The notes below the pieces were generated by a model. The model searched no databases. It was not told where the DNA came from and saw only the letters and a program-made list of their open reading frames with translations. Both the position numbers and the translations under genes were made by a program. From contig MHFR01000053.1 of the NCBI GenBank assembly GCA_001804285.1, positions 79,857-143,856 on the forward strand: a stretch of DNA of 64,000 bases, given 5' to 3'. The stretch is from Candidatus Danuiimicrobium aquiferis (lineage in GTDB: Bacteria > Omnitrophota > Omnitrophia > Omnitrophales > Danuiimicrobiaceae). How positions within the stretch are numbered: the stretch's first letter is position 1; every line of letters begins with the position of its first letter. Of this stretch, positions 24,973 through 58,286 are shown piece by piece.

Positions 24973-25055
24973 TACTCAGCTTTTTAAATACACAAGAGCA
25001 CAGGGACGCAAGAATTTCTTTACCCTGTGCGCTGGTGCCCATACGTGCTGAAAGG

Positions 25056-27325: not shown

Positions 27326-28492
27326 TTACTGCCTTCTGCCTACCGGTTCCCGGTTTTCCCGATACGAACTATCCACCTTCACCGGTTTAAAGCCGGCGCG
27401 TTCGATCGATGAAATCAATTTTTTCTCATTTAAATCCAGTGGAACTTGACTTCCGGCTTCATGCATCACTTTCTCGTTCAAATTTGTTCCTCCGAAATCA
27501 TCAGCTCCGAATGCAAGTGCGACTTCAGCAAGTTTTAAATTAAACGCCGGCCAGTGAACTTTGATGTGAGGAATATTGTCGAAAAGAAGCCGCGAAACGG
27601 CAAATACTTTTAAATCCGTAAATCCGCCCGGTGTATCAATTTCTCCGAGCCGCGAATTTTTCGGATTGTATGGCATGGGAATAAACGCCTGAAACCCTTT
27701 TGTTTCGTCCTGAAGTTTCCGCAATCTTAAAATATGATCCACTCGATCCTTGGCCGATTCCAGATGCCCATAAAGCATCGCGCAGTTTGAAGGGATGCCG
27801 ATTCTGTGTGCGGTTTTATGAATCTCGAGCCATCGGGTGCTATTTGTTTTATGAGCGCAAATTTTTTGTCTGATCGCTTCATCAAATATTTCCGCCCCGC
27901 CGCCCGGGAGCGCGCCAAGCCCTGCGGACCGGAGCCGGACGAGAACTTCTTTGCAGGTTAAATCGGACCGCCGCGATAAATCATCAATTTCAACAGCGGT
28001 GAGCGCTTTAATCAAAACGGCCGGAGCGGCTTCGTGAATCGTACGAAACATTTCCAAGAAATAGTCAAAGTTTAAATCCGGATTCAATCCGCCGACAATA
28101 TGGACTTCATTAATTCGATATTTCTCATACGCTTGTTTTACCCGGTCCCTAATTTCCGGGATCGAAAACTGGTAGCCGCCCGCTTCACCGGGTTTGCGGG
28201 AAAACGCACAAAAGGAACAATGGGCCGTACAAATATTGGTGTAATTTAAATGTAAGTTAATCGAATAATAAACTCTCTTGCCGTGCAACCGCTCACGAAC
28301 GCGGTTGGCGAGAAAACCGAGAGAGTTGAGGTCGTTTGATTGAAATAGCCGGACGCCGTCCTCGAATGTCAGGCGCTCGTTGTTTTCGAGCCGGATTTGA
28401 ATGTCGTGAAGGTCTGCACCAAAAAAGGGGACAGGTTCTGCTTCAACGGAGTCAGAGCCTGTCCCCTTTTTTGCCCCTGTGCTCTTATGCAC
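27326..28492 (-). CDS. Radical SAM enzyme of the MqnC/MqnE family (futalosine-pathway menaquinone biosynthesis). The true start is uncertain.
   Basis: NYTNICTAHCSFCAF gives the CxxxCxFC cluster motif, and the overall length fits. The N-terminal 20-25 residues of the track ORF (KKGTGSDSVEAEPVPFF) are encoded by a MITE at 28421..28471. Confidence 0.7.
   Translation of the reverse strand: MHKSTGAKKGTGSDSVEAEPVPFFGADLHDIQIRLENNERLTFEDGVRLFQSNDLNSLGFLANRVRERLHGKRVYYSINLHLNYTNICTAHCSFCAFSRKPGEAGGYQFSIPEIRDRVKQAYEKYRINEVHIVGGLNPDLNFDYFLEMFRTIHEAAPAVLIKALTAVEIDDLSRRSDLTCKEVLVRLRSAGLGALPGGGAEIFDEAIRQKICAHKTNSTRWLEIHKTAHRIGIPSNCAMLYGHLESAKDRVDHILRLRKLQDETKGFQAFIPMPYNPKNSRLGEIDTPGGFTDLKVFAVSRLLFDNIPHIKVHWPAFNLKLAEVALAFGADDFGGTNLNEKVMHEAGSQVPLDLNEKKLISSIERAGFKPVKVDSSYRENREPVGRRQ
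28421..28471. repeat. GGGGACAGGTTCTGCTTCAACGGAGTCAGAGCCTGTCCCC element, followed by a GTGCTCTTATGCACTTGTGCTCCTGTGC arm
   Basis: Same family as 19399..19447. Confidence 0.8.
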
Positions 28493-28507
28493 TTGTGCTC
28501 CTGTGCT

Positions 28508-29575
28508 TTATTCTTTCCGTTTCTCTATTTCCTTAAACAACTCGTCGACCAATTCACTTTCCGGCACCACTCGCGCCTGTTTGCCGTGAACATAAATCAT
28601 TCCTTTGCCTTTTCCGCCGGTAATGCCGAAATCCGACTCCATCGCTTCGCCGGGGCCGTTGACCGCGCAGCCCATCACGGAAATCCGGACCGGTTCTTTG
28701 AGTTTGAGCGCGCGCGATTCCACTTCATTCGCAAGTTTAAACACGTCAATTTCCGCGCGGCCGCAGCGAGGGCACGCAATCACTTGCGCCCCGAATTTCC
28801 GGAGATTGAGGGATTCTAAAATAAAACGCGCCGCTTTAATTTCTTCAGTGGGTTCAGCCGACAGCGAAACGCGAATGGTATCGCCGATTCCTTCCTGAAG
28901 CAGCGTCCCCACTCCGATCGCATTCGCGACGGCACCTTTAAGAAGCGTTCCCGCTTCCGTGACGCCAACGTGAAGCGGATAATCAAATGTTTTTGAAGCA
29001 AGCCGGTAAGCTTCAATCGTAGTCAACACATCGCTTGATTTCATTGAAATGACAATATCGCTAAATCCATATTCTTCCAGAATCTCGACATGGCCTTTTG
29101 CGCTTTCAACAAGCGCTTTCGGCGTCGGGTGTTTATATTTCTCGAGAATTTCTTTCTCAAGCGATCCGCCGTTCACTCCGATCCGGATCGGAATGCCCCG
29201 TTCTTTTGCTTTTTTCACGATGACTTTCACGCGATTCCGCGCGCCAATATTTCCGGGATTGAGCCGAAGCTTATCGATTCCTTCTTCAAGCGCGATCAAC
29301 GCGTTTTCAAAATGGTATTGAATGTCAGCCACAAGCGGAATTTTGATTCTTGCCCGGATCTTACCGATCACCCTCGCATCTTCTTCCGTCAAACACGCAA
29401 CTCGCGCAATTTCACATCCGAGCTCCGTCATCTGCTGAATTTGATCAACCGTTTGAGCCACATCACGTGTCGGCGTGGTGCACATGGATTGAATGCGGAT
29501 GGGCGCACCGCCACCGATAGTCACAACCCCGACTTTTACCTGTTTCGTTTTTTTTCGCACCGTCATCCTCCGCAC
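28508..29575 (-). CDS. ispG: 4-hydroxy-3-methylbut-2-enyl diphosphate synthase IspG (GcpE)
   Basis: Full-length match to the IspG pattern, including C-terminal CPRCGR and GCAVNGPGE. Confidence 0.9.
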   Translation of the reverse strand: MRRMTVRKKTKQVKVGVVTIGGGAPIRIQSMCTTPTRDVAQTVDQIQQMTELGCEIARVACLTEEDARVIGKIRARIKIPLVADIQYHFENALIALEEGIDKLRLNPGNIGARNRVKVIVKKAKERGIPIRIGVNGGSLEKEILEKYKHPTPKALVESAKGHVEILEEYGFSDIVISMKSSDVLTTIEAYRLASKTFDYPLHVGVTEAGTLLKGAVANAIGVGTLLQEGIGDTIRVSLSAEPTEEIKAARFILESLNLRKFGAQVIACPRCGRAEIDVFKLANEVESRALKLKEPVRISVMGCAVNGPGEAMESDFGITGGKGKGMIYVHGKQARVVPESELVDELFKEIEKRKE

Positions 29576-32397: not shown

Positions 32398-34092
32398 TTA
32401 GCTCGCTTTTACAAAACGCATCCGGTATTCTTCGTACCGCTTGGAATCAACATTGTCTTCAATTAGTTGTTTTGTAAACGAAAAAAAAGTGGGTTCGATT
32501 TCTTTTAAACTTTTTGCCAGATTTTTTTCAAGCAGCGCTTTTTCGGCTTTCACATCATATTCCGGCCCTTGTTTTCGAATTTCACGGATAAAATTAAGAA
32601 ATCGATCCCGATATTCGCTATGCAACAGAAAATAAATAAATACCCAGCTTTCCGCATACGTCAAATTGGCATACTTCGGATCAAGTTCATGGAGGCCGAT
32701 GCCCCGGTCAAAATTCATAATGTACTCAAGCGGAAGCAATTCACTCTTTTCAAGCTCATACTTGAGCTGAATCAAACGTTCTTCATGCGGATCTCCGATC
32801 GGATCCGTTTCGCAGTAAACGGCAAGTCCCTCAATGAGCCAGCCGCCTTGGTAAATTTCGAAAGGGGTAATTCCGAATAAATGGAATAGCTGATGAGCCC
32901 CTTCATGACGGATGACCTTCCCGGTCCGGTTCCGTGCTTCGCTCAAAATCCGGAGTTCAGTCTTCTCTGCCTGAGTAGCCGCGCGATCCACTTCGCCCAT
33001 TTGGCTCCCCGCTGTCAGATTTTTCATCATGCCGGCCATTTGCACCTGAAACCCTTTGTTTTGAGATAAAGCCGCCATAATATCCCGGTCCGTCTTTGCA
33101 TTATAAAACACAAGTTTTTTTGCCTTAAACTCATAAAAACCAATCGGGTTACTTCTAATATGAATGTTCAGCTCGGTCAGCATATCGTCAAATTCTTTAC
33201 GGGTACCGAAAATAATAACATCCAGCGCCTCCGGCTGTTTTGTCAAGTCAATCAGGTCAAAAAAATTGCGGACGAAATCCTGATAAAATAAATCCAGGGA
33301 TTTTAAATATAATTTGAGTTCAACCGGATCTTTTTCAGACGCGAGAATCTGATAAAGCCCTTTGTGCCTGAACTCAAAACCCGGGTGACTTTCCTGGAAA
33401 ACTTTTAAACTTTCCCGAATCTCAGAAGCCGGCTTCCACAGAAAAAATTTTTCGATCCGGTCCATATCCAGCGTCAGAACCACCGAACCGCCTTCTTCAA
33501 GCTTTTGACGAACCTCAATTGAATCTCCCTCTTTTTTCACGATATGCCCGCCGATTTTTTCTCCGTTCTTCAAAACCAAAACCTGTTCCGCGCCCGTCGG
33601 CCAATCGTCGTCAGCTTCCTTTTCACGATTGGGGAGATAAATTCCGCTTTTCTCGGCGACAACGTTTCCCTGCAAAATATTCCTCTCGATATCTTGAATC
33701 TCAGATTTTGAAAAGCCGACAATTCCGTCTTTTAATTGCATCCTGATTTTTCCCCGATACTCCTCAACAAGTTTCCCCTCAACGATTCCTCCATTTTTGA
33801 GTGTCAGCCTGTCTACAACGAGCGGGGTGACTGGAACCGGAGATGTTGGTGTTTCGGCGGTAACTGTTTTGGGTGCACTTTTCTGTAAGTTTTTATTTAG
33901 AAATGGAATCCGGTCGCAACCGGAAAGGGTAAAGAGCACAAAGGTGCACAAGAGCACAAGTCGGAAAAAGGGGACAGGTTCTGACTTAACGGAATCAGAA
34001 CCTGTCCCCTTTTTCCGCAGTATATCGTATGCCGTGTTACTCATTTGCATATTCCCTTTTTTTTGCCGCCTTTGTTCCCAACACCATGTCAT
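32398..34092 (-). CDS. Putative lipoprotein with an HExxH motif (candidate zinc metallopeptidase). The start is uncertain.
   Basis: Lipobox-like LFTLSGC after a hydrophobic stretch, and VIRHEGAHQLFH. The N-terminal KKGTGSDSVKSEPVPFF is MITE-encoded (33965..34013). Confidence 0.5.
   Translation of the reverse strand: MTWCWEQRRQKKGNMQMSNTAYDILRKKGTGSDSVKSEPVPFFRLVLLCTFVLFTLSGCDRIPFLNKNLQKSAPKTVTAETPTSPVPVTPLVVDRLTLKNGGIVEGKLVEEYRGKIRMQLKDGIVGFSKSEIQDIERNILQGNVVAEKSGIYLPNREKEADDDWPTGAEQVLVLKNGEKIGGHIVKKEGDSIEVRQKLEEGGSVVLTLDMDRIEKFFLWKPASEIRESLKVFQESHPGFEFRHKGLYQILASEKDPVELKLYLKSLDLFYQDFVRNFFDLIDLTKQPEALDVIIFGTRKEFDDMLTELNIHIRSNPIGFYEFKAKKLVFYNAKTDRDIMAALSQNKGFQVQMAGMMKNLTAGSQMGEVDRAATQAEKTELRILSEARNRTGKVIRHEGAHQLFHLFGITPFEIYQGGWLIEGLAVYCETDPIGDPHEERLIQLKYELEKSELLPLEYIMNFDRGIGLHELDPKYANLTYAESWVFIYFLLHSEYRDRFLNFIREIRKQGPEYDVKAEKALLEKNLAKSLKEIEPTFFSFTKQLIEDNVDSKRYEEYRMRFVKAS
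33965..34013. repeat. GGGGACAGGTTCTGACTTAACGGAATCAGAACCTGTCCCC element, with upstream arm GAGCACAAAGGTGCACAAGAGCACAAG
   Basis: Same family as 19399..19447. Confidence 0.8.
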
Positions 34093-48808: not shown

Positions 48809-50518
48809 TCAATCCACCGCAATACTCAATATTTCCTCAAGCGATGTCACGCCTTCTTCAACCTTCTTAAGGCCGCTCGTAAGCAAAGTAGCGTATCCTT
48901 TTTTGCGCTGTATTTTCCGGATATCATCGGCGCTCGCATTACTTGCAATCATTCTTCTAAACTCTTCGTCTATAGGCAACAGCTCATAGATCGCAACGCG
49001 GCCCCAAAAACCGATATTGCGGCATTCTTTGCAGCCTTTCGCCTGATAAATTCTGTCGACCTTAAACCCATATTCCTTACGCATATAATCGTTCACCGGA
49101 ACGGGCTCTTTACAGGATTCGCATAACATTCTGACAAGCCGCTGGGCCACGAGCAGCACAAGACTGCCGGCTAAAAGATAAGGTTTGATTCCGATATCTA
49201 CCAACCGGTTAATGGCCGTCGGCGCATCATTCGTATGAAGGGTGCTGAACACAAGATGTCCGGTCAGGGAAGCTCGAATACAAATCTCGGCCGTTTCCTG
49301 ATCACGCACTTCTCCCACCAGAATAATATCCGGGTCCTGCCGCAAAAACGCTCTCAGTCCGGTCGCGAAAGTAAGCCCGATATCGGGCTTGACCGGCACC
49401 TGATTAATCCCTCCCATTTGATATTCAACCGGGTCTTCAATGGTCATAATATTCACTTTTGTCGATTTCCGCTTACAAATGGAAGCGTACAACGTGGTAG
49501 ACTTTCCGCTTCCGGTCGGGCCCGTCACAAACACAAGGCCGTAAGGTCTTTTGATGCAATCATTGAAAATCTGGAGTTGATCCTTCTCAAATCCGAGCGC
49601 CTCCAAATCCAGCAGTTCAACACGTTTATCTAAAAGGCGCATGACAATTTTTTCGCCATTAACGGTCGGTACCGTTGAAACGCGAACATCAATTTTCCGC
49701 CCTTTATACCGGAGCTCAAATGATCCGTCCTGGGGGATTCGTTTCTCCGCAATATCGAGTTTGGAAAGAATTTTAATGCGCGACACAATGGCCAAATGAA
49801 ATTGTTTGGGCGGCGGCGGAAGCGCATATAAAATTCCGTCAATCCGGTAACGGATCGCTATTTTTTCTTGAAAAGGCTCAATATGAATATCACTTGCTCG
49901 ATCATCCGCCGCTTTTTTGAGAAGCACATCCACAAGTTTCACCACGGGCGCCTGATCCGCTGCAACCACGAGTGACTCAAGGTCAACAATTTCGCGGTCG
50001 TCTTCCTGAAAATATAACGCCTTCGCCGCATCCAATTCAGAAGAGCTCACCACTTCTTCAAGGCCCGTTGATCCGTAAAATTTTTCAATTGCAGCTCTGA
50101 CGCCATCTTCCGTCGCAAGAACCGGTGTAATGTCACATCCGGTAATCGCACGCAAATTATCGAGCAAAATAATGTCCGGTGGTTTTGCTATCGCAAGTTT
50201 CAGTTGATCGCCCCGCCGCTCGAGCGGAAGAATTAAATGTTCAAGCGCCACATCCCTCGGAACCAGCTCTTTCAGCCGTTGATCCATTTTAGGTTTGAGC
50301 ATTTCAGAAGGCACGAATGCCGCATCGAGCTGCGACGCAAGCGCGAGTTTGAGCTGTACCTCGTTTTGGACAAAACCGAGGCTGAGCAGAAGGCGGCCAA
50401 GCGGTTCTCTGGTTTCTTTTTGTTTTTCAAGCGCGGTTTCAAGCTGGTATTTCGAGATTAACCCCTTGGCAACGAGGAGATTTCCGATCTGAATACTTTT
50501 TTTCATAATTTCATACAC
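48809..50518 (-). CDS. pilB: Type IV pilus assembly ATPase PilB (GspE family)
   Basis: N-terminal GSPII_E_N-like domain, Walker A GPTGSGKSTT, Asp and His boxes, and a CxxC...CxxC tetracysteine. Confidence 0.85.
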   Translation of the reverse strand: MYEIMKKSIQIGNLLVAKGLISKYQLETALEKQKETREPLGRLLLSLGFVQNEVQLKLALASQLDAAFVPSEMLKPKMDQRLKELVPRDVALEHLILPLERRGDQLKLAIAKPPDIILLDNLRAITGCDITPVLATEDGVRAAIEKFYGSTGLEEVVSSSELDAAKALYFQEDDREIVDLESLVVAADQAPVVKLVDVLLKKAADDRASDIHIEPFQEKIAIRYRIDGILYALPPPPKQFHLAIVSRIKILSKLDIAEKRIPQDGSFELRYKGRKIDVRVSTVPTVNGEKIVMRLLDKRVELLDLEALGFEKDQLQIFNDCIKRPYGLVFVTGPTGSGKSTTLYASICKRKSTKVNIMTIEDPVEYQMGGINQVPVKPDIGLTFATGLRAFLRQDPDIILVGEVRDQETAEICIRASLTGHLVFSTLHTNDAPTAINRLVDIGIKPYLLAGSLVLLVAQRLVRMLCESCKEPVPVNDYMRKEYGFKVDRIYQAKGCKECRNIGFWGRVAIYELLPIDEEFRRMIASNASADDIRKIQRKKGYATLLTSGLKKVEEGVTSLEEILSIAVD

Positions 50519-50558: not shown

Positions 50559-50930
50559 TCAGGAATAATTGCGCCAAGCGCTGTGCAATTTGAACAGTTT
50601 GGCGCCTAACTCCTCATAGCCTCTTAAAAAGCTATCATGCTTCTCTTGTGTTAAGTAATGACAGTCCAATGAAAATAATAACCATGCTTTCGTCTCTTCA
50701 AGTGATCCGATCGCATCGACCAAATGCCGTTTGAAAAGACTTACATATTTTCGTTTTCCCCAGCCTTCGGCTATATTAACAGCAACAGAACGGGATGCCC
50801 GAAGAATTTGATCAACCAAAGAATATTTTTCTTCTTTAGGAAAGATTTTGCTTATTTCAAATATTTTCATCGCTAAATTATGAGCCAGTTGATATACTTC
50901 CAAATCCAAAAATGTTTTAATCGTTTTCAT
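50559..50930 (-). CDS. Four-helix-bundle protein (TIGR02436 / 23S rRNA intervening-sequence protein family)
   Basis: MKTIKTFLDLEVYQLAHNLAMKIFEISKIFPKEEKYSLVDQILRASRSVAVNIAEGWGK matches the characteristic family pattern. Confidence 0.75.
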   Translation of the reverse strand: MKTIKTFLDLEVYQLAHNLAMKIFEISKIFPKEEKYSLVDQILRASRSVAVNIAEGWGKRKYVSLFKRHLVDAIGSLEETKAWLLFSLDCHYLTQEKHDSFLRGYEELGAKLFKLHSAWRNYS

Positions 50931-51195
50931 TATTATTCTAACAGTTATTTTGGACTTTCTGCTTCCTGTTTCTTACTCCTGATTAAAAAGATACATGATG
51001 TTCTTAAGAATTGCTACAGTACGGTTAAAAAAATACAACAATCGTTTTTCTCCGGCGCCTGCTTTCTTCTTTTTAAATATCTTAACCAAGTCTTGAAATA
51101 AAAGGGAACATGCACTCTAAGCACATGTCCCCGCTTTTCTTACTTCATACATCCTGCTTCTTACTTCTATTCAGCCTTTAAGCTTGTACCCCCCC

Positions 51196-53034
51196 CTACC
51201 GCGTCACCGCCCCCGCTTTTGCATTAATCACAATCGGCCGCCCGTCACTTTCAATAATCGAATCGGGGCCCAATGCGCTTTCCGGTTGCTGTAATCCGGC
51301 TTCAATTTCCTGCGCCGCAAGATCCATCAAAAGATCTCTCTCTTTTGTATTTCCTTCTTGTCCGGCAAGTTCTTGATTTTTTTCTTTGGTTAAATTCTTA
51401 TACCATTCTTTCTTTTTAACCTTCCAAATCGGCGCGGAAACATCTTCTTGTCGTTCTTTTTTATCCGGCACTGAAACAACACGCAAATCTGACGGATCCT
51501 TAATAATATGAGGCGTAATAAATACAACCAACTCCCTATCATTCATTTGTTTAGTACCCCGCTTAAACGCTCTTCCAATCACCGGAATATCGCCCAATCC
51601 GGGAACCTTGTGCTGCGCATTGGTTTGCGAACTCACAATCATTCCGCCAAAACATACGGTTTGACCGTTATTCACCATTAGATCCGTTACCACATTTCGC
51701 GCAGTCGGGTCTTTTCGGGTCGACACCAAATCAGATACAGCGGTTGTAATATGCGCTACCTCAACATGTAGCGTAATTCTGTTCTCCGTGTTGATCATAG
51801 GAATGACATAAAGCAGTGTTCCCGTTAACTGCCTTTCGGCTGTTGTTGCTTGACTAGTTGCTTGTGTGCCCACAGTCACAGTCACATTTTGCTCTCCAAT
51901 CGTTTCGGAATTTGCAACAGCAATCAGGGCATAATTATTGTCGCGAACCAAAACTTTAGGCTTCGCAATAATCTTAAGTTTGGACGCCACTTGCAAAGCT
52001 TTCAAAGTTGCCGTCAGATTTGTAAAGGATAACGATCCGGGAGTATACGTATTTGAAACTGCCGTTTCGGTCTTCGTTCCAAACCATTCATCTTTCCCTA
52101 AAAACTGCGGGCCTTTAATATTAAATGGAAACCGTTCCGTTGAGGTTCCCCCCGTTAATATGCCCCATGTGCCTTGTGTTGTCGACTTAGTCCATTCAAT
52201 ACCAAAATAATCTTCAAGAGCAGAAAGAGTTTCAACAATCACTGCTTCCATATAAATTTGTTCGACCGGTTGATCTAACGAAACGATTGCCTCTTCAATC
52301 ATTTTTAATCTTTCTTCTGTATCTGTGATGACCAAGCTATTGGATCGATTGTCCACTTGAAGTTTTCCCCGATCAGATAAAATATTTTTAACGATTTTGA
52401 AAAGGGGCATTTCGTCCACTCTTGTATGTTCGATGGTACTTAATAATGACTTGCCGCTACTGCCGCCTCCTGTAATTTCAAATTTATCTAAACGTTCCGG
52501 TTCAGAAACAAGAATATAGTAAAGTTTAAATACTTTTGTGATCAGCGACGGCTGATCTTCTGTTATAACAGAACCACGGAAAACATAAAGGTTCCGATCG
52601 GGATAAAAATCATAAATGACATTCGCACCGCGTGAAATTGCATCGAGCGCATCTTCGAGCGTAACTTTATCAAGTACCATGTTCAATCTGCGCTCAGCCA
52701 CTTCTTTCCCGGCGATAAAATTAATACCGGTTAACTGTGAAAGGGAATGAACTACATTTAAAAGTGTTGCACCTCTAGATTCCACGCCGACTTTCCCTTC
52801 CGCCATGGGAACGGCAGTCACTTCATCTTGAAAAGAATCTATTTGAGACTTTTCGGACTTCTGTGACACGGATGATGCTGCCTCGAGAGGAGCTGGCACG
52901 GGTGGCTCTACCGGAGCAGATTGGATCTCTTGAGGGGGTTGTTCTTCTGTCAAAACGGATTCAGCAGACAGAGAATCAGACAAACAAAATAAAACCAGAA
53001 AAAAACTCAACACTACAATTATTTTTATCCGCAT
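51196..53034 (-). CDS. pilQ: Type IV pilus secretin PilQ
   Basis: Signal peptide, N-domains, and a C-terminal secretin domain ending ...ELVVFITPHIIKDP. Confidence 0.85.
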   Translation of the reverse strand: MRIKIIVVLSFFLVLFCLSDSLSAESVLTEEQPPQEIQSAPVEPPVPAPLEAASSVSQKSEKSQIDSFQDEVTAVPMAEGKVGVESRGATLLNVVHSLSQLTGINFIAGKEVAERRLNMVLDKVTLEDALDAISRGANVIYDFYPDRNLYVFRGSVITEDQPSLITKVFKLYYILVSEPERLDKFEITGGGSSGKSLLSTIEHTRVDEMPLFKIVKNILSDRGKLQVDNRSNSLVITDTEERLKMIEEAIVSLDQPVEQIYMEAVIVETLSALEDYFGIEWTKSTTQGTWGILTGGTSTERFPFNIKGPQFLGKDEWFGTKTETAVSNTYTPGSLSFTNLTATLKALQVASKLKIIAKPKVLVRDNNYALIAVANSETIGEQNVTVTVGTQATSQATTAERQLTGTLLYVIPMINTENRITLHVEVAHITTAVSDLVSTRKDPTARNVVTDLMVNNGQTVCFGGMIVSSQTNAQHKVPGLGDIPVIGRAFKRGTKQMNDRELVVFITPHIIKDPSDLRVVSVPDKKERQEDVSAPIWKVKKKEWYKNLTKEKNQELAGQEGNTKERDLLMDLAAQEIEAGLQQPESALGPDSIIESDGRPIVINAKAGAVTR

Positions 53035-53076: not shown

Positions 53077-53637
53077 TCACTTTGTTACCTTCGCAGTCGC
53101 CGCATCCAATTCAAAAAGGCGAAGGGTTTCGCTTACTCCATTTATTATAATATCGACTTCATTCTTACGAATTTGAGTAACAATAATGCCATTCTTTTCT
53201 TCATTCTTACTGTAAATTTCTCCGTTAATAATCGCCTTCGCCCCTTTGTTGGACATGCTGACGCCCTCAAGAACTGCGCTGGATGCGGATTTTACTCTTT
53301 TCTCGCTTTTCACCTCAACCGGAATGGGAGCCGTTGGTAGGTTCGATTCAAAAGGATCGCGAATTTGATCCAATTGATCTGCCGGTTGATTTGGAACTGC
53401 CGTTTTTTCTTTAGATTCGGGTGAAAGCAGAGGTTTCGCGATTGATGTTTGTTCCGATAGCGGCGGTTGTTCCAATGTTTCCGGAAGCTTTGTTTCGTCA
53501 GAAGATTGACTATAGAGAAGGGGCGCAAAAAGGAAGAAAAAAAGAATAGCGTAGAGTGTGTAGCGTATAGCGCAGAGCGTAGAGCCTTTGTGTCTATTTA
53601 GCGTTTTGAAGTGGCGAACACGCCATGTTCGTGTCAT
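53077..53637 (-). CDS. PilP-like pilus assembly lipoprotein. The start is uncertain.
   Basis: C-terminal beta domain NKGAKAIINGEIYSKNEEKNGIIVTQI...ETLRLFEL. The track ORF 53077..53808 extends through MITE sequence, and the first plausible Met is at 53637. Confidence 0.45.
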   Translation of the reverse strand: MTRTWRVRHFKTLNRHKGSTLCAIRYTLYAILFFFLFAPLLYSQSSDETKLPETLEQPPLSEQTSIAKPLLSPESKEKTAVPNQPADQLDQIRDPFESNLPTAPIPVEVKSEKRVKSASSAVLEGVSMSNKGAKAIINGEIYSKNEEKNGIIVTQIRKNEVDIIINGVSETLRLFELDAATAKVTK

Positions 53638-53697
53638 GCCCGCATGCTTAAAGCGGGCATCCACAGTTTCTGGATTCCCGCTTTCGCGGGAATGACA
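53596..53697. repeat. 75-nt repeat (TTTAGCGTTTTGAAGTGGCGAACACGCCATGTTCGTGTCATGCCCGCATGCTTAAAGCGGGCATCCACAGTTTCTGGA) plus ATTCCCGCTTTCGCGGGAATGAC
   Basis: Near-identical to 32255..32328. Confidence 0.8.
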
Positions 53698-53821
53698 AAA
53701 AAACAGATGCTCTTTTACAGATAATCGCTTCAAAGCGCTAAACAAATACGAGCGTTTAGCGTGTAGCGTATATTGAATTTTATTGGTCATGTAAATATTT
53801 TTTGCCATTGAGAAGGTTGCG

Positions 53822-54364
53822 TTAGCCCTTTTTCAGGTATGTCTGCACCGCAATTTTTACCTGCGGCAGAACCTCGCTATCAGAATTCTCTCGAGTTCTG
53901 ATAGCACTAAAATTCATAATAAAAGAATTCACAGAAATATCCGGGCGTTCTTTTTCCAAAATCGAAAAGAATTTCAAGATATTGCGAAATTCGCTTTTCG
54001 CATTTATCTCCATTGATAAAACATCATATTGTTCTTCCGATCTGATCGACGGAGTTAAAGAATCCATATCGATTCCGCTCTGATTGACGTATTTCGTCAC
54101 TTCTCCCATAATCGCATGCCGATCCGCCTTGCCGGATAATTGTTTTGCAAGAATTTCCCGCTGTTTTTTTATTTGGTTAATTTCGAAAATAAGATCGGAT
54201 CTTTCTTTCGCTGTTTTTGCGGTATATTTATAGGATTGGATTTGAATAAGCGCCGGCTGAACGAAGCCCAAATAGCCCACGATCACTAACCCTGCCGCCA
54301 AGCCGGCATAAATTGCTTTTACTTTTTGCGATTCTTTAAGATTATTTAAATCTGTCAGCTGCAT
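53822..54364 (-). CDS. pilO: Pilus assembly protein PilO
   Basis: N-terminal TM helix, coiled coil and a periplasmic domain, in the operon position after pilN. Confidence 0.65.
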   Translation of the reverse strand: MQLTDLNNLKESQKVKAIYAGLAAGLVIVGYLGFVQPALIQIQSYKYTAKTAKERSDLIFEINQIKKQREILAKQLSGKADRHAIMGEVTKYVNQSGIDMDSLTPSIRSEEQYDVLSMEINAKSEFRNILKFFSILEKERPDISVNSFIMNFSAIRTRENSDSEVLPQVKIAVQTYLKKG

Positions 54365-55911
54365 AAAATATAAAATTGTGAGGCATCCCGCCCCATTAAT
54401 TTCTGTCGCTTCACTTCTTCGAGCGAAATCGATTTAAAACTTGCAGAAAATCTTTTCATGGCATTCAGATCTTTAACCCATTGATTAATTTCCTGAACTT
54501 CTTTTTCCGCATCTGCAAGATAACAATAACCGCGAATTTCAAATTTCAATTTTCCTCCTTCATTCTGTCTTTCGCCCCCCATCCGAGAAAACCGCTGTCC
54601 GTCGCGTCCCGTCCCATATGAAACATCTTCAATCCAGACGGATTTGGGCATCGCACTGACAAGTTCAAAAAGAATCTCTTTCATTGACACGCTTTTTCCG
54701 GACACCTGTTTAAGCTGATTGAGCCCGGTTTCAAGTTCGGATTTGAGCGCACTCAACGCAGCCGGCGCTTTTTGAGCGAGCTCCATATCTGCGCGCGCTT
54801 CAGGACTCAATTGGTTGACCGCTTCCTGCTTGGCACGATTTAAATAAGGCTGGAGTCCCACGAAATAGACCGCAAGAAAGAACAGAACAATTCCAAATAG
54901 TTCCGATAGTACCACTTTTTTTATTTTCGCGGGATCAATCTGGCGATCGGCAACGGGAAGCAATTGAAAATCACCCAAGGGGGATTCGTAACCAAGATTG
55001 AGCAAAGCAAGCCCGATCGGGACAATTAAGGCGCCTAATACATTTTTGGGAATATTTTGTTCGGCGGGAAAACCAGCCAACAAAATTTCGGCTTGTTTTC
55101 CAAATACACCGGTTAGAAAATTATTCCAAAAAATGAGGTCGCCGTTCCCGACTAAAAATATTTGATCAATTTTCGCTTGGCCCGATTTATTAAATAAGAA
55201 ATCAAGGGATGCTTTCACTTCCTGAAAAAACCGGGTTTCATTCGCCACTTGGTCATCCGAAAGGAAAAAATCCCGGCAAAGGAAAACGGTCCCTTGGGAC
55301 GCAAGTGTAATATTCACGCTTCCATCCGCATCGATCAGAATAAAACCGTATGTCTTATTCTTCAAATCCTTTTCAACAACCCCGAGAGTCCGCGCAATCG
55401 AACAAAAAACAGGCTCTACCATGTAAACACCGGCTGTTCCTTTCCGCAGGTGCCCAAGATGAGAATAAAGCACCTCTTGCTTGACCGCCGTATAAGTCAC
55501 CCAGAGAGATTTTCCCTCATTCGGAAGATCGTGATATTCAACATGAAAGTCAGAAAACGATTCATCCAGCTTGTATGGCACATAACGGCGAGCTTCGAAC
55601 CGGATCGCTTCATCCCACTCACGGCGTGGAATGACGGGCATTTTAAAAAATCGGGTGGCAAAATGTCCGGAACTGATTGAAGCATTTAAATAGGCGTGAC
55701 GGATTCCCATTTTAAGAAGGGCTCGTTCAACCGCTTGAGATTCGGGAGTCGTCTGCCTCTTTGCGGCTGGCCTTGCGTGCTGTCCTTCGCTCTCATCAAT
55801 AATGATGGGCTCTATTGCAAACTGTTTAAGCTGAAGCGCTCCTTTAAGACGCACAACACAAGCGGCAATAACTTCTTTCCGCCCGATGTAAATTCCAACA
55901 CCTTTTTCCAT
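54355..55911 (-). CDS. Fused PilM (actin-like ATPase) and PilN protein
   Basis: The N-terminal ~340 aa has the PilM pattern. A TM helix VVLSELFGIVLFFLAVYFVGL and a PilN-like periplasmic domain follow. The likely start is MEKGVGIYIG at 55911 rather than the track's 55983. Confidence 0.7.
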   Translation of the reverse strand: MEKGVGIYIGRKEVIAACVVRLKGALQLKQFAIEPIIIDESEGQHARPAAKRQTTPESQAVERALLKMGIRHAYLNASISSGHFATRFFKMPVIPRREWDEAIRFEARRYVPYKLDESFSDFHVEYHDLPNEGKSLWVTYTAVKQEVLYSHLGHLRKGTAGVYMVEPVFCSIARTLGVVEKDLKNKTYGFILIDADGSVNITLASQGTVFLCRDFFLSDDQVANETRFFQEVKASLDFLFNKSGQAKIDQIFLVGNGDLIFWNNFLTGVFGKQAEILLAGFPAEQNIPKNVLGALIVPIGLALLNLGYESPLGDFQLLPVADRQIDPAKIKKVVLSELFGIVLFFLAVYFVGLQPYLNRAKQEAVNQLSPEARADMELAQKAPAALSALKSELETGLNQLKQVSGKSVSMKEILFELVSAMPKSVWIEDVSYGTGRDGQRFSRMGGERQNEGGKLKFEIRGYCYLADAEKEVQEINQWVKDLNAMKRFSASFKSISLEEVKRQKLMGRDASQFYILCS

Positions 55912-56027
55912 TATTCGACTCCTTAATCCCGGGCTAAGAACATAAGAGCACAAGCGCACAGGAACACAAGTTTGAAATTTCATCTCTTGTGCACATGTGC
56001 ACTTGTGCTCTTGTGCACTTTATGAAT

Positions 56028-57515
56028 TTATAAACCCAGATAAATGGCGTCTCCGGAATTCACCCGTTCTAAAACATCTTCACTGATGATCGAAGCGGCT
56101 GATAGTGTTTGATAAACCCGCTCAATTTTTCCGGTTCCGAGCAACTTTCCATTCTGATAAATTTCCACTGTCCGGCCGATTTGAGCACCGTTACTCGGCC
56201 CGATATTGACGATCACAAACCGATGCCAACGGTTCACAAGCATCACTTTTCCGTCCGAAACGCCTGTTTTAACAGAAGCTTTTATGGCCGAAACTTCTCG
56301 CCTTGTGCTGCCACTCGCTGTCGCTATGGGTTCGACCCGTTTCTGATCGACCGGCACCTGACTGGCCAAAGGCTGAGTTTTTGAATATCCGCGCGTTTGA
56401 GAGATTCCACCCTCAAGCAACTTCCGGATCGACTCAAGATTGGATTCAAATGTCTTAATCAAATCATCCCTCATGGCAATCACATTTCTCATCGATGCCA
56501 CTTGATCCTCATACACTTTGGCGACGCGTGCGAGCTCTTGCCGATGACCGTCCTGAATCGTATCGATCATGTCTCCCCTTGCTTTAGCCACCTCAAGATC
56601 GGTGAGCAGACGGTTCATTTCAATTTTGTTTTGATCAAGTTCCTTTTTGAAATTCCCGATTTCCATTTCAAGATCGCTTTTCGCTTGCCTGAATTCACTC
56701 AGTTGCGCTCTATCCTGCTTCCTTAAAGTCATCTCCCGATAAAACAACTGTCCTAGCGCCAGAGCAATCACGGCTACAAAGACTAAAAAAACGATTGTTA
56801 AATTTGGAATTTTTGCTTTTCCTAAAGTTTCTATTGGTTTCATAAAAACACTCGATAATTTCGCTGCCGGTTGCCCAACATCCGGTTGTGGAACCGATTC
56901 TGTTGGTTGAATGATTTCTTTATAGATTGATTCGTTTTGTGATTTTTTAAAAATGTTTGGAATGCCAAATTGAATCTTAGGCAAACCAAAATTGATCTTT
57001 GGCATATTAAACTTTATCTTCGGTAAAATCGGCATCTTGAATTTTATTTTGGGAACATGAAAACGAACCGCCGGAAGATGCAGCTTGAAAGTCGGAATAG
57101 CAAACGCAAATCTCGGGAAATTAAACTTAAGCACAGGAACATTAAACGTAAATTTCGGAAAGCTAAACTTAATTTTCGGCAGCACAAAACGGATCTTTGG
57201 GAAACTAAACCGGATTCTAATCCTTGTCCACCCTTTAAGGCCTTCCCAAACCCGCTCAACCGACTCACTGATATTCCGAACCAATCTACTTCCGTCAAAA
57301 TCCAAATCAAACCTGCGAATCGCATAAATCTGTTTCTCAACCCACTTCATTTCTTTCGAGCTTTTTAAACGCGCAGGCAAAATCAATATTTTTTCGGCAA
57401 AATACGGCGCCCTTTTAACCGGTTTGGCTTCCTCTTTTTCCACGATCTTAATCGGGGAAATGTCCGGATCTTTAATCTCAAGTTCTGGCCATGCTGTTTC
57501 AGCTAACTGTACCAT
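56028..57515 (-). CDS. Hypothetical protein with about 14 tandem P-K-(I/F)-K-F hexapeptide-like repeats, a TM helix, a coiled coil and a C-terminal beta-barrel-like domain
   Basis: Translation is FSFPKIRFVLPKIKFSFPKFTFNVPVLKFNFPRFAFAIPTFKLHLPAVRFHVPKIKFKMPILPKIKFNMPKINFGLPKIQFGIPNIF, then TM helix IVFLVFVAVIALALGQLF, then a coiled coil. Confidence 0.6.
   Translation of the reverse strand: MVQLAETAWPELEIKDPDISPIKIVEKEEAKPVKRAPYFAEKILILPARLKSSKEMKWVEKQIYAIRRFDLDFDGSRLVRNISESVERVWEGLKGWTRIRIRFSFPKIRFVLPKIKFSFPKFTFNVPVLKFNFPRFAFAIPTFKLHLPAVRFHVPKIKFKMPILPKIKFNMPKINFGLPKIQFGIPNIFKKSQNESIYKEIIQPTESVPQPDVGQPAAKLSSVFMKPIETLGKAKIPNLTIVFLVFVAVIALALGQLFYREMTLRKQDRAQLSEFRQAKSDLEMEIGNFKKELDQNKIEMNRLLTDLEVAKARGDMIDTIQDGHRQELARVAKVYEDQVASMRNVIAMRDDLIKTFESNLESIRKLLEGGISQTRGYSKTQPLASQVPVDQKRVEPIATASGSTRREVSAIKASVKTGVSDGKVMLVNRWHRFVIVNIGPSNGAQIGRTVEIYQNGKLLGTGKIERVYQTLSAASIISEDVLERVNSGDAIYLGL
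56945..57230. repeat. Nucleotide tandem repeats encoding the PK(I/F)KF units
   Basis: Reiterated aaa(t/c)tt..gg(c/a)a..aaaa motifs on the plus strand. Confidence 0.6.
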
Positions 57516-57518
57516 GGG

Positions 57519-58286
57519 TTACTCCGTTTCGCTTGCAATCGTCGTAATTTGGTTTTTACCTGATTTTCTGGCTTTCTCCAAGGCGCGATCAAGAGAACTC
57601 AGTACATCTTCTTTTCGGCGATGGATTGCAGAATCAAAACCAACCAGGCCTATACTAACGGTAATCTTAATTTCCCTTCCTTCGATCCGGAAGATTTTCT
57701 TTTCAATCGAATAACGAATCCGTTCCGCCACCACGCGCGCGGAATTCACAGCTGTCTCAGGTAAAATAGCAACCAGCTGATCATCGCCTTTACGGATAAT
57801 AATATCGACTCCCCGCATGCTTTCCTTTAAGAATTGATTCATTTCCTGCGCCAAAACTTCTGATGTAATCTCACCGTATTCTTTCTTGACATCCGAAAAA
57901 CCATCGATTCCCGCGAGCAGAAATGAAAGCGGCCTTCGATAACGCCGGGAACGATCGCATTCCTCCGTAAGCCGTGAACAAAGAAGTCTCTCATTATAAA
58001 CATGTGTTTGCGAATCAATGGCAAGGCATGAATCAAGGGCTTCTTTCGCTTTCTTGAGCTCGTAAGACTGCATAAACACTTCCCGATTCAATCGATCCCG
58101 TTCGCCAATGAGATTGCTCGCGTAAAACCCTCCCCATCCACAAATAGAGATCCCGATCACAAAAATCAATTGATGAAAAGGAGTGTGAATAAAAAATGGC
58201 AGTATCACCACCGGTGAAAATATCACGGCTGAAAACAATATTCCCCTGCTAATTTTTTTAATATCCATAGAAGATGACCCTATCAA
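57519..58286 (-). CDS. Membrane-anchored GGDEF-domain protein with a degenerate active-site motif (RKGDDQL instead of RxGGEEF)
   Basis: GGDEF fold pattern (LFLLAGIDGF...YGE..S.EVL...VDIIIRKGDDQLVAILPET...ITVSIGL...ALEKARKSGKNQ). The signature has G-D-D-Q-L. Confidence 0.7.
   Translation of the reverse strand: MIGSSSMDIKKISRGILFSAVIFSPVVILPFFIHTPFHQLIFVIGISICGWGGFYASNLIGERDRLNREVFMQSYELKKAKEALDSCLAIDSQTHVYNERLLCSRLTEECDRSRRYRRPLSFLLAGIDGFSDVKKEYGEITSEVLAQEMNQFLKESMRGVDIIIRKGDDQLVAILPETAVNSARVVAERIRYSIEKKIFRIEGREIKITVSIGLVGFDSAIHRRKEDVLSSLDRALEKARKSGKNQITTIASETE

Follow-up and report, generated by a model that had tools for sequence, protein, structure and literature searches.

The window analyzed here is a 64,000-nucleotide (nt) stretch of the Candidatus Danuiimicrobium aquiferis genome (assembly GCA_001804285.1, contig MHFR01000053.1, positions 79,857 to 143,856 of the forward strand). 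Its minus strand carries a type IV pilus cluster, and within that cluster lies a gene (56028..57515, minus strand) for a bitopic membrane protein of 495 amino acids (aa) that contains a long, strongly basic heptad array. The conserved, biologically meaningful finding is a trio: a degenerate GGDEF gene, this gene, whose product combines a transmembrane (TM) helix, a coiled coil and a FlgT_C-like domain, and the pilMNOPQ genes that follow. The array is an embellishment of the protein and not its core function.

The gene, its protein and its family

The gene stands in the order rlmN, degenerate GGDEF gene, gene of interest, PilM-PilN fusion, PilO and PilP-like gene. A preliminary description of the window had placed it between the degenerate GGDEF gene and pilMN and proposed that it is co-transcribed, which remains probable, and we found the same order in two further lineages, around the relatives P0003 (292 aa, 40% identity; locus L010) and P0002 (346 aa, 43% identity; locus L016). 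The pilus-linked synteny sample is these three lineages; a five-sequence locus search of genome and metagenome collections gave one locus each. Farther downstream on the same strand, the PilP/GspB-like open reading frame (ORF) is followed by the genes for the secretin, a 23S rRNA-intervening-sequence protein (IVP), PilB, PilC and a prepilin.

The upstream partner (57519..58286, minus strand) encodes a membrane-anchored GGDEF protein and is syntenic in all three lineages (L010, 260-1009; L016, 569-1318). Its degeneracy, noted in the preliminary description, is borne out by an active site that reads RKGDDQL, and all three neighbors retain an RxxD I-site while having lost the active site (RGVD...RKGDDQL in the window, RGVD...REGNSRV in L016 and RSVD...RYGEGRF in L010). 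A kept RxxD with a lost GG[D/E]EF is the signature of cyclic di-GMP (c-di-GMP) receptors, as known from PelD- and PopA-type proteins. Based on these motifs, the neighbor probably acts as a receptor of c-di-GMP rather than as a cyclase. PilB (48809-50518, minus strand) carries an MshE-type c-di-GMP motif at aa 10-63 that scores above threshold (NF053729, 51.5 bits versus a cutoff of 38), and it is therefore probably c-di-GMP-regulated itself.

The 495-codon ORF, which ends in a stop codon, is genuine. Its product is identical to OGW81588.1 and related accessions (Omnitrophica bacterium RIFCSPLOWO2_12_FULL_44_17/Ca. Danuiimicrobium aquiferis), its ATG lies 3 nt past the stop of the GGDEF gene, and a GGAG Shine-Dalgarno sequence is found 6 nt 5' of that ATG. 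The first six residues, M-V-Q-L-A-E (57498..57515, minus strand), align with pilus-linked orthologs that open with MSQLAE, MTQLAE, MAQVAE or similar. This MxQLAE motif persists in orthologs that are only 30-40% identical, which indicates that the annotated start is real. Because the array lies in frame between MxQLAE and a conserved juxtamembrane motif, it must be translated.

The protein divides into successive segments, all encoded on the minus strand. A helical, putatively cytoplasmic segment (aa 35-96, 57228..57413), recognized with AlphaFold2 (AF2) and the family alignment, is missing from the 17 nearest relatives; within it lies "KWVEKQIYAIRRF", by eye like "WVALEEKIVHDY" in the tails of a more distant subgroup. 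The array region (aa 97-192, 56940..57227) is followed by a linker (aa 193-237, 56805..56939) that, in the alignment, ends in the juxtamembrane motif F-M-K-P-I-E-T-L-G-K. This motif is conserved in the family as F-M-K-P-I-x-x-L-K, and its P227 is invariant (18/18 sequences). The single TM helix (aa ~238-258, 56742..56804) was located by a hydropathy scan (239-257) and coincides with an AF2 helix starting at 239. Beyond it come a predicted periplasmic coiled coil of ~115 residues (aa 259-372, 56400..56741), for which AF2 gives helices at 239-312 and 319-372 with a break at 313-318 and which drew coiled-coil-only library matches; a low-complexity linker (aa 373-421, 56253..56399) that varies in length and sequence within the family; and a C-terminal beta-barrel (aa 422-495, 56031..56252). 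The preliminary description is therefore upheld in its domain order, with a beta-rich C-terminal domain behind the repeat, the TM helix and the long coiled coil.

The hydropathy scan gave no hydrophobic segment at the N-terminus that could serve as a signal peptide. Since the array is N-terminal to the sole TM helix, strongly basic and not preceded by a signal peptide, it is probably cytoplasmic by the positive-inside rule. In this topology, the N-terminal 237 residues would lie in the cytoplasm and the remainder in the periplasm. FlgT-type domains are known from periplasmic proteins.

With a 41-sequence alignment, AF2 modeled the C-terminal domain (~70 aa) as a small six-strand barrel (predicted local distance difference test [pLDDT] score, 88). 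The top two Foldseek matches in the PDB were 8z5n (Vibrio LP-H-T ring) and 3w1e (FlgT), with E values of ~1e-4 and a query TM-score (TMq) of 0.71, followed by the N-terminal crown barrels of F1/V-ATPase subunits. In addition, 33 of 41 family members gave subthreshold matches on this domain to PF16538 FlgT_C (12.7-17.9 bits versus a 27-bit gathering threshold); the window protein itself had no match to PF16538 even at an E value of ≤10. We name FlgT_C as the matched domain because the Pfam matches point there; Foldseek names the FlgT structure only. The modeled fold is FlgT_C-like, and the protein falls outside formal FlgT_C membership in Pfam. FlgT, a Vibrio flagellar H-ring protein, resembles the window protein in being periplasmic and ring-associated, but it is a soluble three-domain component of the flagellar motor and shares one small domain with it. 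No flagellar genes were present in the neighborhood of the window gene.

Sequence searches of the whole protein and of four pieces against Pfam, NCBIfam and the PDB returned nothing beyond coiled-coil noise. A weak precomputed match links the window protein and relative P0183 to Pfam DUF8429 (PF28533), and the family appears to correspond to this recent, uncharacterized entry, on which we found no literature. Several other identities were considered and rejected. A PilN or PilO identity fails on a PilO match that is coiled-coil-level only (E value, 0.12; 12.9 bits versus 22), on a C-terminal fold that is a beta-barrel and not ferredoxin-like, and on the separate PilM-PilN and PilO genes that follow. 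Homology to MreC gave an hhalign probability of 1.2% over 25 columns when the two family alignments were compared. A repeat beta-helix of the pentapeptide or hexapeptide (LbH) kind was set aside on a period of 7 where 5 or 6 is expected and on the absence of a confident solenoid in the model of the array (pLDDT, ~30).

An exhaustive phmmer search of 1.84 billion representative proteins gave 660 matches in two classes. Class A matches align only to aa ~220-495 and are proteins of 250-350 aa, none with the array; each has a single N-terminal TM helix and a coiled coil, and their conserved C-terminal domain has the consensus GKVLVVNxxYNFAVINLGxxDGVxxGxxFxVY...KVEKVHDSMSAA...EGDxV. Class B matches align only to the array and comprise giant AHNAK-type proteins and some bacterial-looking repeat proteins. 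They share nothing else with the query, which suggests that the resemblance of the arrays is convergent. The search returned no pilus component with such an array, as the preliminary description had supposed. Word-index searches, run with the full protein and with its C-terminal half, yielded nothing other than P0003 or the protein itself. The module of TM helix, coiled coil and barrel defines a family that appears to come from Omnitrophota, the phylum of both members that carry organism names.

Members of this family occur in two genomic contexts, the pilus-linked branch and a set of short forms linked to murA-mreBCD (elongasome) genes. Identity to the window protein is 30-43% in the pilus-linked branch and 17-25% among the short forms, and the N-terminal tails, predicted to be cytoplasmic, are confined to the pilus-linked branch. 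Five distant short members (267-299 aa) are followed by murA, mreB, mreC, mreD, the PBP2 gene and rodA and preceded by ileS, dksA, lspA, in some cases lgt, and rluD. The short-form paralogs (L012, 8001-8864; L013, 8001-8900; L014, 8001-8873; L015, 8001-8804) are always placed between rluD and murA, downstream of ftsA...ileS-dksA-lspA-lgt, and at several loci the stop of the paralog overlaps the murA start. This placement suggests that the short paralogs are an uncharacterized cell wall or morphogenesis factor, seemingly of Omnitrophota. No paralog of the window protein was found within the 64-kb window.

The heptad array and its origin

The array consists of a basic, RIRIR-type lead-in (WTRIRIR) followed by heptads of the form F-x-phi-P-[K/R]-phi-[K/R] (phi, hydrophobic), with 12 full units and one truncated unit at aa ~103-192. 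The region was delimited by autocorrelation, composition and unit alignment. Its class autocorrelation is 0.64 at period 7, compared with 0.27 ± 0.04 for shuffled sequences (0/10,000 shuffles as high), 0.35 at period 5 and 0.10 at period 6, and there is no higher-order period above the heptad in the autocorrelation of the array. The repeat is real, as the preliminary description had claimed, but its unit is a heptad and not the hexapeptide proposed there, and the count falls short of the 14 or so units first estimated. Nor is the array uninterrupted: prolines at 106, 113, 120, 127, 134, 141, 148, 155 and 162 are followed by others at 165, 172, 179 and 186, marking a 3-residue register slip at 162-165. 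Conservation per unit is high at F1 (10/11), P4 (11/11) and the hydrophobic positions 3 and 6 (11/11). Across aa 97-192, there are 21 Lys/Arg and no Asp/Glu residues, giving a net charge of +21.

The hydrophobic moment of the array peaks at 154.3° per residue (muH, 0.63, versus a shuffle maximum of 0.32 ± 0.04; 0/2,000 shuffles) and is close to zero at 100° (alpha-helix, 0.08) and 180° (flat strand, 0.01). These values do not support amphipathic strands, as ordinarily understood, of the kind that the preliminary description had proposed. Single-sequence AF2 gave a pLDDT of ~30 over the array, with two weak strands (128-132 and 137-141), and no Pfam repeat family matched it. One arrangement that would fit the moment is a five-residue alternating strand in each unit (phi-K-F-x-phi), with P-K as the connector from one strand to the following one. 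Because the connector would reset the register after each strand, the Phe, Ile and Leu side chains could all point one way and the lysines the opposite way. The regular prolines block helices and runaway beta-aggregation.

This one-sided heptad geometry was proposed long ago for AHNAK, and Pro-punctuated heptads that alternate hydrophobic and charged residues are common to the array and to vertebrate AHNAK and periaxin. Shtivelman, Cohen and Bishop reportedly suggested in 1992 that the AHNAK repeats form an extended "polyionic rod." In our phmmer search, the AHNAK-type protein P0006 (3,961 aa, with an N-terminal PDZ domain) matched the array in 47 stretches of the type "GKFEMPKIDVSLPKLK". The AHNAK proteins are eukaryotic, however, their repeats mix acidic and basic residues where the window array is purely basic, and their heptads are nested in 128-aa super-repeats behind an N-terminal PDZ domain, neither of which the window protein has. 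Without homology outside the repeat, the likeness points to convergence in composition and period and not to ancestry. The closest prokaryote-like mimic is P0103, a 312-aa metagenomic protein with period-7 Pro-Lys/Arg-hydrophobic-x-Phe units ("SPKVNFD/SPRINFG") and 39% identity to the window protein over aa 101-189. In contrast to the window protein, P0103 has at its N-terminus a segment like a signal peptide, which makes export of its repeats probable. Asp occurs in its units, which are close to neutral, and the module of TM helix, coiled coil and barrel is absent from it, as is any Pfam match.

At the DNA level, the repeat is much less regular. Tandem Repeats Finder detected only 2 copies of a 21-nt unit in the array DNA, mean nucleotide identity between units is 54%, and the same amino acid in two units is encoded by the same codon only 48% of the time. 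Lysine codons are skewed toward AAG (9/15 in the array, 56940-57209, versus 7/32 in the rest of the gene; 24% in neighboring genes), which may be a remnant of an amplified ancestral unit or reflect avoidance of A runs. The gene is DNA-identical, with the same copy number, on nine contigs that differ in sample and source (ENA, NCBI metagenome-assembled genomes [MAGs], JGI and Logan), so the array is not an assembly artifact. The same protein is present in four GenBank accessions, and the sole variant differs by D16A and the conservative V154I, the only change inside the array. Based on these comparisons of sequence, the array is old at the DNA level, conserved in pattern and apparently maintained.

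All 17 nearest relatives lack the array, and aa ~35-200 of the window protein form an insertion in the alignment. For the cluster of the query itself, the exhaustive search listed only a 71-aa, 99%-identical fragment (P0013) and not the full-length cluster, so relatives of 50-90% identity could have been missed; the word-index search with the C-terminal half likewise skipped the parent protein. Tails of the relatives (40-100 aa) are hypervariable and often carry loose P-K/R-hydrophobic motifs (zero to a few) shortly ahead of the juxtamembrane motif. Examples are IPKFSMEPPKL in P0008, PPKISMHPIFSL in P0011 and CPKFPYV...ELPKL in P0004, and single P-K-type motifs occur in the tails of P0008, P0011, P0051 and P0023. 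In P0012, the tail (charge, +10) bears an irregular mini-array of 4-5 units (KKFPHIPWRFPSFKIAPLKIKPLGLRLKLKPL). The tail of P0002 contains APVFKLNFKKSQ, in which FKKSQ is shared with the array end GIPNIFKKSQ. Unrelated repeats are found as well: about eight charged repeats of the RERxLRE type in P0024, and a "VRKWVALEERIxHDY" segment in three copies in P0051 and two in P0095. The orthologs without the array mark it as a species-level expansion and not a conserved pilus feature, one that in sequence looks to have grown from the short basic P-K-hydrophobic motif of the relatives' tails. The tail is thus a hot spot for lineage-specific repeats, and in the window array a recurring basic motif is carried to its extreme.

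The strongest alternative to a functional array, in our view possible but unlikely, is neutral low-complexity expansion: replication slippage would have multiplied a 21-nt unit within a tail that is cytoplasmic and disordered, the product would be tolerated and unused, and only the TM, coiled-coil and barrel module would matter. The absence of the array from the nearest relatives, the hypervariable tails with their unrelated repeats (P0024, P0051 and P0095) and the lack of predicted structure all favor this account, and the skewed lysine codons fit descent from one amplified unit. It is harder to reconcile with units that have diverged to 54% nucleotide identity while positions 1, 3, 4 and 6 stay essentially invariant, with a frame that is still open and a copy number fixed across nine contigs and four MAGs, or with the failure of a single acidic residue to arise in 96 residues, where neutral decay would blur evenly. 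The preliminary description had linked a lack of the repeat in orthologs to slippage noise. The lack is confirmed, but diverged units, scrambled synonymous codons, the kept positions and the fixed copy number argue against fresh slippage.

If the array is used, its most likely role would be to bind the anionic inner leaflet peripherally, next to the pilus platform, and so raise the avidity or residence of the tail. The charge of +21, the absence of acidic residues and the regular prolines are what would be expected of a peripheral binder of this leaflet, or of some other polyanion, rather than of a domain that folds on its own, and the low AF2 confidence is consistent with such a binder. Of the ligands named in the preliminary description, lipid remains plausible; a cytoplasmic position excludes peptidoglycan and pilin, insofar as the predicted topology holds.

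A second possible role, and a less likely one than neutral expansion, is a multivalent docking strip in which each P-K-phi-K-F unit acts as a short linear motif for a cytoplasmic partner. Candidate partners would be PilM, the MshEN domain of PilB and the degenerate GGDEF receptor; thirteen copies would concentrate such a partner at the platform. Orthologs carry one or few similar motifs at the same tail position, the GGDEF gene is tightly coupled to the array-family gene in three lineages, the pilus machine has two c-di-GMP-related parts, and regular proline spacing is usual in extended peptide-like binding motifs. Against docking, the motifs of the orthologs are loose and align poorly, and the extreme charge and the aromatic residues suit nonspecific binding of an anionic surface at least equally well.

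Downstream genes and intergenic repeats

Next downstream, a 518-aa product combines a PilM domain, a TM helix and a PilN-like C-terminal half (54355..55911, minus strand), as called on L001 and other contigs. The mechanically called ORF (54355-55983) begins inside a spacer hairpin, and the true start is probably the ATG at 55911 behind AAGGAG. This fusion weakly matches the NCBIfam Amuc_1101 family (PilM-like, from the Akkermansia pilus-like cluster), and the secretin (PilQ; 51196-53034, minus strand) weakly matches Amuc_1098. Together, these weak matches hint at a pilus cluster of the Planctomycetes-Verrucomicrobia-Chlamydiae (PVC) type. The 243-aa ORF after pilO (53077-53808) has no family match. 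Its C-terminus (LEGVSMSNKGAKAIINGEIYSKNEEKNGIIVTQIRKNEVDII) resembles a 128-aa PilP/GspB-like ORF at the same position in L016, and its long N-terminal extension is probably overcalled. Between the secretin gene and pilB lies the 23S rRNA-IVP gene (50559-50930, minus strand), which encodes a bAvd-like four-helix bundle and has a terminator-like hairpin upstream of it (51104-51132).

The spacer between the 495-aa gene and pilM holds a strong hairpin (55936..56020, minus strand; -48 kcal/mol, z -6) in which the 8-mer GNGCACAA/G forms inverted arrays. Arrays of this 8-mer are also intergenic at 24988-25004, 28476-28508 and 33944-33960 (11 matches versus 0.1 expected), and each of these three sites adjoins a GC-rich terminator-like hairpin, AAAAGGGGACAGG...CCTGTCCCCTTTT. 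The much shorter orthologous spacers of L010 and L016 (about 17-26 nt) lack this dispersed repeat family. The hairpin may modulate the operon mRNA, with an mRNA stabilizer, an attenuator or a repetitive extragenic palindromic (REP)-like element as candidates.

Proposed role in the type IV pilus

We tentatively favor a role for the protein as a bitopic inner-membrane accessory factor of the type IV pilus machine, a TsaP-like tether of the secretin or another ring that is coupled to c-di-GMP sensing and whose tail would use its expanded array, polybasic and rich in aromatic residues, to bind the membrane or a partner. The coiled coil would form a periplasm-spanning stalk, reaching up to ~17 nm if continuous and less if folded back, and together with the flexible linker it would hold the barrel out toward a periplasmic ring, the secretin or another. 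There, the barrel would dock most likely on PilQ, in the manner of the FlgT-C-like domains in TsaP. The protein would be connected to the c-di-GMP state by its cytoplasmic tail and by the degenerate GGDEF receptor encoded next to it, so that it would tie the inner-membrane platform and a c-di-GMP receptor to the secretin. The observed link between the window protein and the secretin is genomic linkage to the gene at 51196-53034.

TsaP, described from Neisseria, Myxococcus and Pseudomonas, has two C-terminal FlgT-C-like domains (CI and CII) that each contact one PilQ protomer and together form a heptameric belt around the secretin; its overexpression raises c-di-GMP, and it is not encoded within the pil operon (bioRxiv 10.1101/2020.05.29.123786). 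Because these domains contact PilQ, we view the window protein as a possible inner-membrane-anchored analogue of TsaP. The likeness, by fold and published description only, lies in a periplasmic FlgT-C-like domain in a type IV pilus context, a flexible linker between anchor and domain, and a connection to c-di-GMP signaling. The anchors differ: TsaP is held to peptidoglycan by an N-terminal LysM domain, whereas the window protein gave no LysM match in Pfam or NCBIfam and has an inner-membrane TM helix, a long coiled coil and a cytoplasmic tail. It also has one barrel in place of two tandem FlgT-C-like domains, and its gene lies inside the pil operon. A second comparison is with FimV/HubP, an accessory, noncore bitopic inner-membrane hub with one end at the envelope near the secretin and a long, charged, repeat-rich cytoplasmic region. 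The window protein would likewise be a bitopic accessory pilus factor with a repeat-rich, charged cytoplasmic arm. FimV, however, has a periplasmic LysM domain and acidic cytoplasmic repeats that end in TPR motifs, where the window protein has the reversed charge and a periplasmic coiled coil and FlgT_C-like barrel, and we detected no sequence similarity between the two. The protein works, on this reading, most like TsaP and conceptually like FimV/HubP, and it is a member of neither group.

Several points weigh against a TsaP-like tether. The contact between barrel and PilQ is proposed by analogy, and the presence of the same barrel in the murA-mreBCD-linked paralogs means that the fold by itself does not specify a secretin partner. 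The FlgT_C matches all lie under the Pfam threshold (at most 18 versus 27 bits), with none for the window protein. The topology is predicted from sequence, and the array has no confident predicted structure. The array may be dispensable, given that orthologs do without it. The tie between the P0002 unit and the array flanks is the shared FKKSQ pentamer, suggestive by eye, with no significant BLAST match.

A bolder version, to which we give little weight, makes the pilus-linked branch an unrecognized trans-envelope coupler that would relay the c-di-GMP state, sensed by the GGDEF partner and the basic tail, through the coiled coil to the TsaP-like barrel and so gate extrusion. In this species, the tail would in addition be a bacterial counterpart of the AHNAK "polyionic rod." It may form a one-sided Phe/Lys ribbon punctuated by Pro, or a paired beta-meander, on the anionic inner leaflet, or a polyanion condensate, around the platform.

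Still more doubtful is a general envelope spacer or morphogenesis factor that sits in the pilus cluster incidentally and whose barrel binds peptidoglycan or an elongasome component. Five distant members in the conserved rluD-to-rodA context speak for it, as do the MreC-like layout of TM helix, coiled coil and barrel and a weak match of P0004 to the MreC barrel model (E value, 0.075). The family alignment nonetheless gave the very low hhalign probability against MreC reported above, and the pilus-linked branch is a clade separate from the short forms by identity. Its place inside the pil operon has been kept in three lineages, and the window contains no adjoining paralog or elongasome gene.

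We consider it very improbable that translation begins at M224 (MKPIETLGKAKIP, followed by the TM helix) and leaves the array out of the mature protein. Most pilus-linked orthologs do have a Met two residues ahead of the invariant Pro, and "KAKIP" followed by the TM helix mimics the N-termini of short family members, which MKPIETLGKAKIP also resembles. We rejected M224 as the start of the main product because no Shine-Dalgarno sequence was found ahead of it, whereas GGAG precedes the annotated ATG; in addition, the MxQLAE N-terminus is kept among divergent orthologs, four orthologs have no Met at this position, and the 223-codon frame upstream remains open. Least credible is the folded beta-solenoid or amphipathic strand array, binding peptidoglycan or pilin outside the cytoplasm, that the preliminary description had raised from the short, regular, hydrophobic-rich repeats and to which the two weak AF2 strands might be added: it is largely refuted by the predicted cytoplasmic position, and the period of 7 where known repeat beta-helices have 5 or 6, the charge of +21 without counter-charge, the pLDDT of ~30 and the flat-strand moment of 0.01 all speak against such a fold.

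Confined as it is to one species, the array is a curiosity and not a general principle. It is also a clean natural case of a short motif amplified into a long, exclusively basic, Pro-punctuated repeat, and as such it is useful for the study of membrane-binding or AHNAK-like repeats. The wider interest lies in the tether. How the secretin is connected, mechanically and in its regulation, to the inner-membrane motor in type IV pili is only partly understood, and the TsaP belt hangs from peptidoglycan; the proposed TsaP-like tether, if true, would join second-messenger sensing directly and physically to the secretin. It occurs in Omnitrophota, a poorly known phylum with a lifestyle believed to rely on surface appendages. 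Since the module is also found beside murA-mreBCD, tethers that span the periplasm may form a broader family.

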